DNA of 64,000 nucleotides, taken from positions 5,909 to 69,908 of the forward strand of contig CAUJJW010000337.1 in assembly GCA_963205105.1 (NCBI GenBank), read 5' to 3'. The notes beneath the pieces were generated by a model. That model saw nothing but the letters and a program-made list of their open reading frames with translations, was not told the DNA's origin and did no database searches. Source of the stretch: Verrucomicrobiota bacterium (GTDB lineage Bacteria; Verrucomicrobiota; Verrucomicrobiia; Limisphaerales; CAIMTB01). This document shows positions 53,599 through 58,402 of the stretch, piece by piece (positions within the stretch are counted from its first letter, which is position 1; every line of letters begins with the position of its first letter). A program made the position numbers and the translations under genes.

Positions 53599-54783
53599 TC
53601 ACTGAACGCGCATGATGTAGGCGAGCGCGTAGTAGGGCGGGCGGTTTTCGTGGGCCTGGCCTGAGCCAGCTGAGGATGTGGTGCGGTTGCGGTACCAGAT
53701 GTAGCGGTTGTCGGTGTCGGAATCGCCGGAACCGTGTTTGCCACCGCCCACGTCCTCATCGAACCAGCTCGATTGGGTGTAGGCCTCGATAAAGAAGCCG
53801 TCGGCGTAGCCGTGGGTGTGGGGCGGGATTTGGGCTTCGGTCAGGGTGACGAAGTTGGCGCCGCCCGTATTGGCGACGCTGTAGGTTGAGCCGGCACCCA
53901 CGACGAAGCGGTCCTGGAGGTTGGGGGTGGTGCGGCCGTTCACGGTAGTGCCGTTGCAGAGGGCCCAGCCGGCGGGGATTTGGTTGATGGCACCGGACCA
54001 GATGATGATGCCGCCGAGGGGAATGGTGCCGAACCCGTTGAGGGTGCTGGGGCTGGGGACGCTGAGGTTGCCATTGACCGTCATGCTGCCGGTGAAGGTC
54101 TGGCTGCCGGCGTTGAGGCGCGGGATGTTGGAGGAGAGCCTGGCGTCGTTGACGGTGCCGGTGGCGATGTGGTCGGCGTTGAGGGCGGTGAGGGCGGCGC
54201 CATTGCCGGTGAAGGTGGTGGCGGCGACGGGGCCGGCGACGGTGACGGCGTTGCCGGTGGCGGTGATCAGATCGGCGCCGGTGTCCTGAACGAGGCGGAC
54301 GGCGTTGTGGGCGAGGAAGGCGTAGGGAGAACTGATCAGGCGGAGGCGGGGGAGGATGTTCACATCGGCGCCGCCGGAACCGATGCCTTTGACGGTGACC
54401 CCGACGAAGCGATCGGACGCGGTGGCGCCTTTGAAGACGTTGGAAAGGACGGGGTGGGCTTCGATCCCGACGGCGGCGCCTTCGCCGAGCAGGACGCTGA
54501 AATAGCCCTTGTCGATGGTGACGGTTTGTTGCTCGGACCAGAGGAGGGTGCCGGCGGATTGATCGTCATAGATGCGGAAGATGACGTCGTAATTCCGTGG
54601 GGCGGAATTGCCCAGGGCGGTGCCGGCGCCGTCGACGAGGAACCCCTGGTAGGTCATGCGTTCGGGAGGGCGAGGGGTGGCCTGGGCGAAGGCGCTGGGT
54701 GCGGAGGCTGCCAGGACGACGCCGAGGGCTGCGACGAGCGTGGCGAGCCGGTTGGCGCCACAGGAATAGAGGCAGGATTTCAT
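53599..54783 (-). CDS. Secreted tail-fibre-like protein with a phage tail-collar (MdpB-like) C-terminal head
   Basis: Signal peptide. N-terminal 'MTYQGFLVDG...FRIYD...GYFSVLLG', 'TGTVNDARLSSNI', C-terminal 'IPAGWALCNG...LQDRFVVGAG...LTEAQIPPHTH'. Confidence 0.8.
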   Translation of the reverse strand: MKSCLYSCGANRLATLVAALGVVLAASAPSAFAQATPRPPERMTYQGFLVDGAGTALGNSAPRNYDVIFRIYDDQSAGTLLWSEQQTVTIDKGYFSVLLGEGAAVGIEAHPVLSNVFKGATASDRFVGVTVKGIGSGGADVNILPRLRLISSPYAFLAHNAVRLVQDTGADLITATGNAVTVAGPVAATTFTGNGAALTALNADHIATGTVNDARLSSNIPRLNAGSQTFTGSMTVNGNLSVPSPSTLNGFGTIPLGGIIIWSGAINQIPAGWALCNGTTVNGRTTPNLQDRFVVGAGSTYSVANTGGANFVTLTEAQIPPHTHGYADGFFIEAYTQSSWFDEDVGGGKHGSGDSDTDNRYIWYRNRTTSSAGSGQAHENRPPYYALAYIMRVQ

Positions 54784-54803
54784 GGGGTAAGGGAGAACGG
54801 GTC

Positions 54804-56603: not shown

Positions 56604-58402
56604 GGCTTGCGATAAAAGTGCCAGGTGGGCTGGGGATTGAGCCGTTGGAGAGAGGCGACGGGCGTGCTGCCTTGTCGGCCGCCGAAGACGAGAAGCTCGG
56701 TACCGGTCCAGGTCGCGGCGGCGTCACGGCGCGCGAGGGGCGAGCCGACTCCGGACAAGGTGCGCCAGGTGCCCGTGGTTGGATTGTAGGCCCCGCCGGA
56801 AGCGAGATCGCCGGAGGCATCCTTGCCGCCGAACACGATCATTTCCTCCCCGGTCCAGACGGCGACGTGCCCGGAGCGGGCGGACGGGGCATTCAGGGAG
56901 GGCAGGGGTTGCCAGGAATTCAGGGTGGGATCGTAAGCGGAGCCGTTGCCGTGGTAGGTGGAACCGGTTTGACCACCCCAAACGATGAATCGTTGGCCGG
57001 TCCAGACGGCGGTATGGCCGAGGCGCGCCGAAGGCGCACCGGAACTGGCCATGGCGGACCAAGTGCCTGGGACGGAGCCGCCGGTGAGGGGGAGAACGGC
57101 GCCGGAGCCGAGTTCGCCGGAGTTACCGAGGCCGCCCCAGACGAGGAACCGTGAGCCGGTCCAGAGACCGACGGCATTCTGTCGACCATCGACGCCGGGG
57201 GCGTTGGCGAGAGCGGTCCATTGTTGGGAGACGGGATCGTAGAGGCCGCCGTCGGAGAGCAGTCCGCCGGAATTGCGTCCGCCCCAGACGAGCATGCGGC
57301 TGCCGGTCCAGACTCCGACGTGTTCGTCGCGGGCGGCGGGTGCGTTGGGGGTGGGGAGGAGGCTCCAGGAAGCGGTGGTGAGCGAGTAGAGTGAGCCGTT
57401 GGCGAGGAACCCGGAACCGAATCCACCCCAAACGATCATGCCCTGCGGGGTCCATACGGCCGAATGGCCCTGGCGCGCGGAGGGGGGATTGATTTCGGAG
57501 AGGGGGAACCATTGATCCAGCTCGGGATCGTAGCGGGAGCCGAGTGAGGAGGCGTTGCCTCCTGCGGTGATGCCACCCCAGAGGATCCAGGACTGGCCGG
57601 TCCAGACGCTGGCGTGTTCGTAACGCGCCGCGAGTGCGCCGGCTGCCCCATTGCGCCAGCCGGCCGCCGGGATGGTGAGAAACCGTACCAGACCCTGGTT
57701 GAGCAGGCCGGCGTCGGCAGGATCGGTGGAGACGACATTGACGCCGGAGGGAATGGTGGATTGGGCGGCGTTGGAAATGGCGAGCAGGGAGGTGTTTAAC
57801 GTGGTGATCCGGTTCGAAAGATCATTCCACAGGGAGGCGAGCGAATTGCTGGTGGCGAGCAGGTCAGAACTGCGCGCGATCGTTGGGGCCAGTCGGGCAT
57901 CCGGCACGGTTCCTGAAGTCAGCTCGGAAGCGTTGCCCGAACCGGAGAAGGCGCGGATGGCGTAGGGCACCGCGTGGATGGCCTGGCGCGGGGAGAGCAC
58001 CTCGGCCGGGTCGCTGCTCCCGGTGGGGCGGGCGGCGAGTTCCAGCCAGCGGGCGGCCCCGGTGAAAGAACCGTCGCCGAAATCGAGTTCCACCGTGAAC
58101 AATCCGTTCTGGACGGTGACGGGACTCTTGAGAAGCGGACTACCGACCGGTGAACCCTCGGTGGCGGCGTCGAAGAGTCGGAAGGTGATTTCGTAGGGAC
58201 CGTTGGCCAGCACATTACCGTCCACCAGGCGGCCCTGGTAAGTGATCGGGGTGGCGACGAGCGGGAGCGCGGCCAGCATCCAGGCGAGGGCGCCGAGACG
58301 GGTGAGACAGCGACGGAGCCAGGCCGTGGCAGGTGGCGGGGTGAGGGGTGGAACGAACGACGACGCGGCAGGAGCGGAAGGCGTGACGATTCGGCGCGTC
58401 AT
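56600..58402 (-). CDS. Tail-fibre-like protein with a seven-bladed Kelch-type beta-propeller head
   Basis: N-terminal 'ITYQGRLVDG...FRLFD...GLFTVELDFG', 'SGTVPDARLAPTI', then seven '(V/L)WTG....(V/L)(W/F)GG' blades. Confidence 0.8.
   Translation of the reverse strand: MTRRIVTPSAPAASSFVPPLTPPPATAWLRRCLTRLGALAWMLAALPLVATPITYQGRLVDGNVLANGPYEITFRLFDAATEGSPVGSPLLKSPVTVQNGLFTVELDFGDGSFTGAARWLELAARPTGSSDPAEVLSPRQAIHAVPYAIRAFSGSGNASELTSGTVPDARLAPTIARSSDLLATSNSLASLWNDLSNRITTLNTSLLAISNAAQSTIPSGVNVVSTDPADAGLLNQGLVRFLTIPAAGWRNGAAGALAARYEHASVWTGQSWILWGGITAGGNASSLGSRYDPELDQWFPLSEINPPSARQGHSAVWTPQGMIVWGGFGSGFLANGSLYSLTTASWSLLPTPNAPAARDEHVGVWTGSRMLVWGGRNSGGLLSDGGLYDPVSQQWTALANAPGVDGRQNAVGLWTGSRFLVWGGLGNSGELGSGAVLPLTGGSVPGTWSAMASSGAPSARLGHTAVWTGQRFIVWGGQTGSTYHGNGSAYDPTLNSWQPLPSLNAPSARSGHVAVWTGEEMIVFGGKDASGDLASGGAYNPTTGTWRTLSGVGSPLARRDAAATWTGTELLVFGGRQGSTPVASLQRLNPQPTWHFYRKP

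Follow-up and report, generated by a model that had tools for sequence, protein, structure and literature searches.

Introduction

Mosaic adhesive trimers (MATs) are a family of fibre proteins defined in Bdellovibrio bacteriovorus and reported in 2024 to form the repertoire with which this predatory bacterium recognises its prey (Caulton et al., Nat Microbiol 2024, PMC10769870). The repertoire consists of 21 surface fibres, 13 of which end in an S74 chaperone-protease and eight in other folds, including TNF-like domains, C-type lectins and new β-sandwiches (PMC10769870). The invariant N-terminal domain (N-domain) was proposed to lie beside the cell surface, is without a structural homologue in the PDB, and its partner was given as unknown (PMC10769870). 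The Bdellovibrio MATs named in that work are at least 626 amino acids (aa) long, and typically ~1,000 aa (PMC10769870). Here we describe two shorter proteins, of 600 and 394 aa, encoded within a 64,000-nt stretch of a Verrucomicrobiota bacterium genome (contig CAUJJW010000337.1, positions 5,909 to 69,908; hereafter the window), which share an N-terminal module (N-module) related to the MAT N-domain and carry entirely different C-terminal tips.

Homologues of the MATs in other phyla, including one in the PVC group, are listed in Supplementary Table S3 of the same work, with tips such as TNF-like, S74, FGE, β-helix, collagen-like, β-sandwich and invasin (PMC10769870). Neither Kelch nor collar tips are listed in that table, nor are any Verrucomicrobiota, and the two tips are likewise missing from those given in the main text (PMC10769870). 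Both tips are found in the window, on the products of two genes that flank a third, within a cassette that recurs across Verrucomicrobiota. We consider it probable, at roughly 0.65, that the 600-aa and 394-aa proteins are Sec-exported, MAT-like surface fibres with new tips, encoded in a conserved cassette whose third gene has repeatedly exchanged its tip.

Results

The shared N-terminal module

Five open reading frames (ORFs), genes 1 to 5, lie head to tail on the minus strand of the window, in DNA of ~65% G+C. Gene 1 (56600..58402, minus strand, 600 aa) encodes a signal peptide, an N-module, a short heptad stalk and a seven-blade Kelch propeller, while gene 3 (53599..54783, minus strand, 394 aa) encodes a signal peptide, an N-module, a short fibre-like neck and a phage tail-collar tip. 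The first-pass annotation had described their products as paralogues bearing exchanged heads on a common shaft, with a common set of N-terminal motifs. Pairwise BLASTP aligned residues 1–222 of the 394-aa protein to residues 29–177 of the 600-aa protein with 28% identity (E = 3e-10), so that the proposed similarity of the first ~200 aa is statistically significant, and the motifs TYQG.LVDG, Y.(I/V).FR(L/I)(F/Y)D, G.F.V.L, PR..(I/L)...PYA and GTV.DARL all fall inside the alignment. Nothing significant was found between the two proteins downstream of it, and the heads are unrelated past the shared module, as had been claimed. In reciprocal phmmer searches each N-module recovered relatives of the other (26 of 69 in one direction, 68 of 120 in the opposite one), and the similarity is therefore not due to chance. 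The shared domain spans ~115–135 aa directly after the signal peptides. Given these alignments, the two fibre proteins are to be regarded as true, ancient paralogues over this N-terminal portion. The duplication separating gene 1 and gene 3 is judged ancient because their modules are only 28% identical, whereas the N-module of gene 3 is 44–87% identical to those of nearly all its closest relatives.

The N-module of gene 3 (aa 34–170) is encoded at 54274..54684 and that of gene 1 (aa ~51–160) at 57923..58252, both on the minus strand; the latter scored 129 bits against an N-module profile that contains it. AlphaFold2 (AF2) modelling of the 394-aa protein as a monomer, using 45 homologues, produced a confident and mostly β-strand domain at aa 41–150 (pLDDT ~90–97). 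The neck and collar were poorly modelled, as is expected when a trimeric fold is modelled as a monomer. Given this model and its MAT counterpart, the shared part is a compact globular, β-rich domain immediately after the signal peptide rather than a common shaft, and the stalks of the two proteins differ.

Neither Foldseek nor a profile search returned a significant PDB match for the N-module. A relationship to ester-bond adhesin domains was considered and set aside, as the profile match to 4mkm/4ni6 (E = 0.014) and the Foldseek matches to 8dj2, 8f9l and 9blo (E = 0.04–0.26) were too weak, there is no conserved His, and the Gln of the PRQ motif is replaced in the collar subfamily. The resemblance to ester-bond Ig-like adhesin repeats is marginal and regarded as convergent.

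Signal-peptide-like N-termini, judged by inspection from a charged n-region, a hydrophobic core and an AxA-type site, are present in all five products. The putative signal peptides of the two fibre proteins end as ...LVAALGVVLAASAPSAFA|QATP in the 394-aa protein and ...RRCLTRLGALAWMLAALPLVA|TPITYQG in the 600-aa protein. The start of gene 1 is uncertain (58253–58402), with the 600-aa ORF having a long n-region ahead of the hydrophobic core. The public gene call begins at the internal Met42 (559 aa) and leaves a very short signal peptide without positive charge.

Relationship to the MAT N-domain

The NCBIfam model NF053851 (‘Bdello_MAT_N, mosaic adhesive trimer family chimeric fiber protein’) matched aa 32–175 of the 394-aa protein with E = 3e-10, covering model positions 6–160 of 162 at 40.1 bits against a curated cut-off of 60. 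Both proteins thus lie outside the Bdellovibrio subfamily as NCBI delimits it, and the 600-aa N-module is connected to MAT transitively, through its BLASTP alignment to the 394-aa protein and the phmmer cross-matches. Because the score is below the cut-off and the 600-aa module gave no match, the link is drawn at the level of the superfamily and not the subfamily. The same model matched 46 of 69 diverse N-modules, a set that includes both modules of the window (best E = 1.1e-12). Taken together, these profile matches show that the N-module is homologous to the MAT N-domain at superfamily level.

The alignment of these 69 modules formed a profile (A1) that was searched exhaustively with HMMER against 1.84 billion cluster representatives. 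As the first two homologue searches yielded no match longer than ~1.75 times the query, long relatives were taken from this search. It recovered 78,065 proteins (cluster representatives) at E ≤ 1e-3 and 47,314 at E ≤ 1e-10. Among the best 150 matches, which range from 132 to 1,542 aa, the domain is found at ~aa 20–150 in nearly all (start at ~aa 20–50). Named relatives come from Verrucomicrobiota, Chloroflexota, Binatia, Proteobacteria and others. In the proteins scanned, the N-domain itself was unmatched by any Pfam-A model.

A survey of homologues for other heads, as suggested by the first-pass annotation, found many tip types on the same N-module. Among 73 of the best A1 matches, Pfam assigned Peptidase_S74 to 22, YadA_head, TIG, lactonase-type propeller and antifreeze β-roll tips to three each, and RCC1 propeller, Collar, collagen, Peptidase_M74 and Big domains to one each. 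The N-module had no tblastn match in 50,697 phage genomes and no PHROG match, and matches of the 394-aa protein to PHROG tail-fibre families are confined to aa 181–394; the base is therefore cellular and the tips are partly phage-like. This agrees with the earlier placement of the genes in a cellular, Sec-exported context, as does the lack of phage genes in the flanks.

The tail-collar tip

In the 394-aa protein the N-module is followed by a neck or stalk (aa ~171–250; 54034..54273, minus strand) with the motifs GPVAATTFTG and GTVNDARL, and PHROG fibre families align from aa 181–194 onward. The C-terminal tip (aa ~251–394; 53602..54033, minus strand) was identified as a tail-collar domain of the T4 gp12 type, a receptor-binding tip. 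The Pfam match was marginal (PF07484, 24.9 bits against a gathering cut-off of 24), but ten PHROG tail-fibre families match the protein, the best being PHROG 1800 ‘tail collar fiber protein’ at aa 251–392 (9.5e-23), and the PDB matches were 9nxk ‘tail fibers protein’ (4.9e-10) and 6ov6 (1.6e-5). The tail-collar head read from the bare sequence is thus real. The PDB entries of the best collar matches contain three chains each, and phage fibres with collar or S74 tips are obligate trimers.

The similarity to phage fibres, together with S74 tips, typical of phage tailspikes, at the same position in related loci, might be taken to indicate the remnant of a prophage, tailocin or contractile injection system that has retained its tail-fibre genes. 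This is very unlikely. Neither family nor PHROG scans of the neighbouring genes detected phage structural, integrase or sheath and tube genes, and the products of gene 2 and gene 4, the latter a giant protein, had no PHROG matches. The N-module is absent from the phage genomes searched, the products carry signal peptides, and the cassette is chromosomal and conserved in 422 species-level genomes.

The Kelch tip

The stalk of the 600-aa protein (aa ~161–245; 57668..57922, minus strand) begins with the neck motif SGTVPDARL and continues as a putative coiled coil, in which eight of the 14 a/d positions of one heptad register are strongly hydrophobic over aa ~166–215. The C-terminal tip (aa ~246–600; 56603..57667, minus strand) matches Kelch models well above their cut-offs where these are given (PF24681, 147 bits against 50; PF01344, 82 bits against 20.1; PF24981, 103.5 bits). 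Blade motifs of the form W[TS][GP]x4-6[VILF][WF]GG start at aa 267, 317, 365, 414, 467, 516 and 565, in agreement with the seven-blade propeller that had been proposed.

The tip also has a weak likeness to NanM/YjhT mutarotases (TIGR03547, E = 3e-8). The N-module could in this case be a generic secreted β-sandwich, and the proteins soluble, non-fibrous binders or enzymes (the Kelch protein mutarotase- or oxidase-like, the collar protein MdpB-like) in a cassette for the processing of extracellular polymers. The very short stalks, the relatives of the N-module with enzymatic tips such as Peptidase_M74 and lactonase-type propellers, and the public annotation of collar proteins as ‘microcystin-dependent protein’ are all consistent with such a role. 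The mutarotase score, however, is 33 bits against a cut-off of 256, far below it (~10-fold), and both the three-chain entries matched by the collar and the trimeric nature of collar and S74 fibres argue for a fibre. So does the occurrence of S74 chaperone-capped fibres in the gene-3 position of 29 loci, and a soluble role is accordingly thought improbable.

A conserved cassette in Verrucomicrobiota

Gene 2 (54804..56603, minus strand), which lies between the two fibre genes, encodes a secreted, all-β, multi-domain protein of 599 aa. The stop codon of gene 1 and the start codon of gene 2 overlap as ATGA (context ccATGAat), and 20 nt separate the end of gene 2 from the start of gene 3. Gene 2 had been called an orphan, a description that no longer holds, with more than 661 homologues of ~600 aa recovered, the best 120 of which are 53–100% identical, and it defines a conserved, Verrucomicrobiota-wide family.

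A scan limited to one genome per species located 422 loci with a 599-aa homologue, almost all titled Verrucomicrobiota, Limisphaerales or Pedosphaera, and 80 of these loci were fetched and compared together with others obtained from contig look-ups. The order N-module protein, 599-aa homologue, N-module protein recurs wherever the flanks reach, so that the bracketing of the 599-aa gene by two fibre genes, seen at first in the window alone, is a conserved arrangement. A homologue of the giant encoded by gene 4 comes next in 63 related loci, and of the 28 loci that extend as far as the giant's end, 13 also have gene 5. In a Verrucomicrobia metagenome-assembled genome (MAG; locus L004), a Kelch fibre is followed by a 598-aa protein, then by an N-module protein of 649 aa with a C-terminal Peptidase_S74 domain and by a giant of 2,754 aa, and the gene calls have the same 4-nt overlap between genes 1 and 2. 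Several MAGs hold two or three such loci, and the cassette occurs (L083) in a MAG labelled Pedosphaera parvula Ellin514, a cultured species. The genes form an undescribed cassette, specific to Verrucomicrobiota, of a Kelch fibre, a 599-aa protein, a variable-tip fibre, a giant and a small TSP3 protein.

An extra tandem N-module gene was observed in two loci, with two such genes after the 599-aa homologue in L080 (6354–8703) and two before it in L041 (4996–9749), which suggests that fibre genes have been duplicated locally.

The strict co-conservation and order of four genes across the Verrucomicrobiota loci raise the possibility that the fibres are not free-standing adhesins but belong as subunits to a single larger machine, either secreted or on the cell surface. 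In such an undescribed Verrucomicrobiota apparatus the N-modules would dock onto a common partner, the 599-aa protein and/or the giant, and would present one invariant tip (Kelch) and one rapidly exchangeable targeting tip. The ATGA coupling of genes 1 and 2, repeated in L004, and the signal-peptide-like N-termini of all products fit this arrangement, and the binding partner of the MAT N-domain is stated to be unknown (PMC10769870). Set against it is the distribution of the N-module, which occurs in ~78,000 clusters from many phyla, while the 599-aa family is almost wholly confined to Verrucomicrobiota and therefore cannot be the general partner of the N-domain. The 599-aa protein and the giant are also without informative homologues, and the sole fusion of Kelch and 599-aa sequences is probably a frameshift artefact. 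A dedicated docking apparatus is thus a tentative alternative, clearly less favoured than independent MAT-like fibres. If correct, it would supply the first identified binding partner of a MAT-type N-domain and would recast MAT-like mosaic fibres as devices for surface recognition used by bacteria in general, not as an adaptation to predation.

The fusion in question, the 1,013-aa protein P0308 (L006, 10001–13042), was discarded as evidence of a physical link. On the same contig, numerous small ORFs take the place of an intact downstream giant, and the fusion therefore probably stems from an assembly indel that spans the ATGA overlap and is not natural.

One constant and one exchanged tip

The two fibre positions of the cassette differ in their behaviour. 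Every one of the 41 complete gene-1 products has a C-terminal Kelch tip, 44–100% identical to that of the window, although the stalk between N-module and Kelch ranges in these orthologues from almost none to ~700 aa. The 64 complete gene-3 products comprise 29 with an S74-type tip, 26 with a collar, three with another shared tip and six singletons. Pfam confirmed the S74 and Collar assignments on gene-3 representatives and matched nothing in those of six other tip types.

Tip types are scattered with respect to how similar the N-modules are: for 27 of the 64 gene-3 proteins, the nearest neighbour by N-module bears a different tip. In one pair, the S74-tipped protein of L020 and the collar-tipped protein of L023 are 89% identical over the first 150 aa, remain nearly identical to ~column 225, just past a GPVTAxSFxG motif, and are unrelated after this point. 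The junction corresponds to the neck/stalk of gene 3 (54034..54273 in the window). Cassettes within a single MAG may also differ in tip, as with L038 (S74) and L065 (another tip), or L040 (a novel tip) and L067 (a collar). These comparisons show that tips have been replaced repeatedly at gene 3, with the junction in the stalk. The head exchange envisaged at the outset is accordingly real and pervasive on the N-module, but does not occur between the two genes of the window, as the gene-1 position keeps its Kelch tip in 41 loci and only gene-3 tips exchange.

The N-modules of gene 1 fall into two classes, one of the window type scoring ~87–129 bits against the profile and one scoring ~23–43 bits or below threshold (for example ‘LLHHQGRI...’ in L004). 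Both classes, noted in L004, L009, L030, L032, L033, L041, L042, L044 and others, retain the Kelch tip.

The 599-aa protein

No sequence match to the 599-aa protein was found in Pfam, NCBIfam, PHROG or the PDB. The AF2 model was of good quality (pLDDT 85.5, pTM 0.78), with an all-β fold in several domains, and its structural matches were generic Ig/FN3-like folds with query TM-scores of 0.14–0.17. Only FN3/Ig-like matches were returned from a viral structure library. Assignment as a PapD-like chaperone was rejected: Foldseek matched PapD-family chaperones and PsbO at E ~ 1e-5, but given the low TM-scores (0.14–0.17) and high rmsd (15–20 Å) this similarity was treated as that of a generic β-sandwich. 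An invariant His/Asp-rich motif, HTYHPDHD (NPFLHTYHPDHDNLD), at aa 502–509 of the family could be a metal-binding or catalytic site. It sits in the sole low-confidence loop of the otherwise confident model.

The giant and the TSP3 protein

Gene 4 (45406..53484, minus strand; 2,692-aa ORF with a probable start at Met27, position 53406) encodes the secreted giant. Complete homologues in related loci are 2,627–2,761 aa long and have an invariant C-terminus ending ...VTYSYSGN. Apart from a weak He_PIG Ig domain, no match to the giant was found in Pfam, NCBIfam, PHROG or the PDB. The C-terminus reads WKLVIPG...DRF..TVKDIKLHFVTYSYSGN and is preceded by a long helical region. Together with the pattern W.L.IPG...D...L.F.TYSY, these features resemble Tc-toxin A subunits. 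The searches did not support a TcA-type toxin at sequence level, with nothing returned by Pfam on four segments or, from PDB sequences, by either phmmer or a profile built from the last 1,000 aa of 16 sequences.

Gene 5 (43936..44781, minus strand) encodes a secreted protein of ~281 aa with a TSP3-type calcium-binding repeat (TSP3_bac, 24 bits against a cut-off of 25). The start was placed at Met209 of a 489-aa ORF (43936–45405), whose homologues align only from aa ~195–232. The non-conserved first 208 codons of this ORF and an overlapping 390-aa ORF (~44782–45405 and ~42879–44051, minus strand) hold a repeated element that translates as ...LTPTLSR(G/R)...(F/I)LPLPPGEGRGEGRSLHSSL...SVA(A/G)GV(P/S)P.... 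Both ORFs are considered over-extended, because the repeat looks intergenic rather than coding.

Flanking genes

The cassette is flanked by genes for an ABC transporter, an APH kinase, a DUF1559 pilin-like protein and a TPR protein, none of which is syntenic in the compared loci. Upstream, at 59407–62729 (minus strand), are the type IV pilin-like DUF1559 protein, with an N_methyl motif, and an 843-aa double APH-type kinase, neither syntenic with the cassette in other genomes. The MAT study mentions that adhesion by these fibres and type IV pili may act in concert (PMC10769870). A scan for promoters and terminators was uninformative, with no promoters found and terminator-like sites at chance level.

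Discussion

If the products of genes 1 and 3 are MAT-like fibres, each would consist of a β-rich N-domain, a short oligomerising stalk and an independently folding C-terminal tip that binds a ligand. The stalk of the 394-aa protein would be a repeat neck resembling those of fibres, and that of the 600-aa protein a coiled coil of heptads. By analogy with MAT, the N-domain would anchor each protein to the cell envelope for surface display, and the tips would bind external ligands, probably glycans or surface polymers. The fibres are expected to be trimeric, since collar and S74 fibres are known trimers and the 600-aa stalk has a heptad pattern. Genes 1 and 2 are translationally coupled through the ATGA overlap, and the 599-aa protein or the giant may take part in display. 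Within the cassette, the giant, the 599-aa protein and the Kelch tip stay constant. The gene-3 tip has been replaced repeatedly by recombination in the stalk just past the N-domain, and is now an S74-capped fibre, a collar or one of at least seven others that Pfam does not match. In this way, different cassettes, including paralogous ones in one genome, could present different binding specificities on the same base.

Several observations weigh against the proposal. The NF053851 score of the 394-aa protein (40.1 bits) is below the NCBI curated cut-off of 60, and the 600-aa N-module has no direct match to the model. With 394 and 600 aa, the proteins fall well short of the Bdellovibrio MATs in length and lack an obvious long β-helical or β-prism shaft. 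Trimerisation, surface exposure and ligand binding are inferred, and the collar modelled poorly as a monomer. Kelch is a monomeric fold, unreported as a MAT tip (PMC10769870), and its NanM-type similarity may point to an enzymatic role.

The presence of the N-domain in ~78,000 clusters suggests that bacteria present exchangeable binding tips by way of a far more general system. The cassette itself is a natural experiment in which the Kelch tip is frozen and the other tip is repeatedly swapped among S74, collar and several unknown folds, with a clear recombination junction in the stalk. Concrete candidates for the partner to which the N-domain attaches are the giant and the 599-aa protein. Experiments are feasible, given that a cassette is found in a MAG labelled as the cultured species P. 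parvula Ellin514 (L083).

Among the closest known systems are the MAT fibres. In these and in the proteins of the window, a signal peptide precedes a conserved β-rich N-domain without a PDB homologue, a variable tip follows that folds independently, and tips are swapped on a constant base. S74-capped and non-S74 versions exist in both, and here the S74 versions occupy the same position of orthologous cassettes; the N-domains are also linked by sequence (E = 3e-10; 46 of 69 relatives match). The differences are the score below the NF053851 cut-off, a Verrucomicrobiota host without a known predatory lifestyle, lengths of 394 and 600 aa against typically ~1,000 aa with the long β-prism shaft missing, and collar and Kelch tips, neither of which is in the main text or Table S3 (PMC10769870). 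The fixed five-gene cassette with its 599-aa protein and giant likewise has no described Bdellovibrio counterpart.

The C-terminal ~145 aa of the 394-aa protein are a bona fide collar (IPAGWALCNG...DRF.VGAG...IPPHTH...NRPPYYALAYIMR) like that of phage tail-collar proteins (T4 gp12 type, PF07484, PF21939 Gp10_C, 9nxk). Collar kin are also bacterial, as in the C24 protein 6ov6 and the ‘MdpB’ microcystin-dependent proteins. Unlike the phage proteins, the 394-aa protein has N-terminal two thirds with no phage counterpart, and its gene is chromosomal and part of a non-phage cassette. The 600-aa protein has seven Kelch blades and strong Pfam scores in common with Kelch/NanM propellers (PF24681, PF24981, PF01344, TIGR03547), but mutarotase models score far below cut-off, and in this protein the propeller comes after a coiled-coil stalk and a MAT-like N-domain in one chain. 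YadA-like trimeric autotransporter adhesins and other modular fibre adhesins of bacteria are comparable in their modular head, stalk and anchor, and some N-module relatives have YadA_head tips; here, however, there is no C-terminal β-barrel translocator anchor and the polarity is reversed, with the conserved putative anchor N-terminal and the variable head C-terminal.

A conserved N-terminal base with mosaic tips was thus already known from Bdellovibrio (PMC10769870). To this the present analysis adds the collar and Kelch tip types, fibres of very short architecture, the large size of a superfamily whose N-domain has no Pfam match, and a Verrucomicrobiota cassette in which a frozen and an exchangeable tip accompany two conserved proteins without an assigned function.

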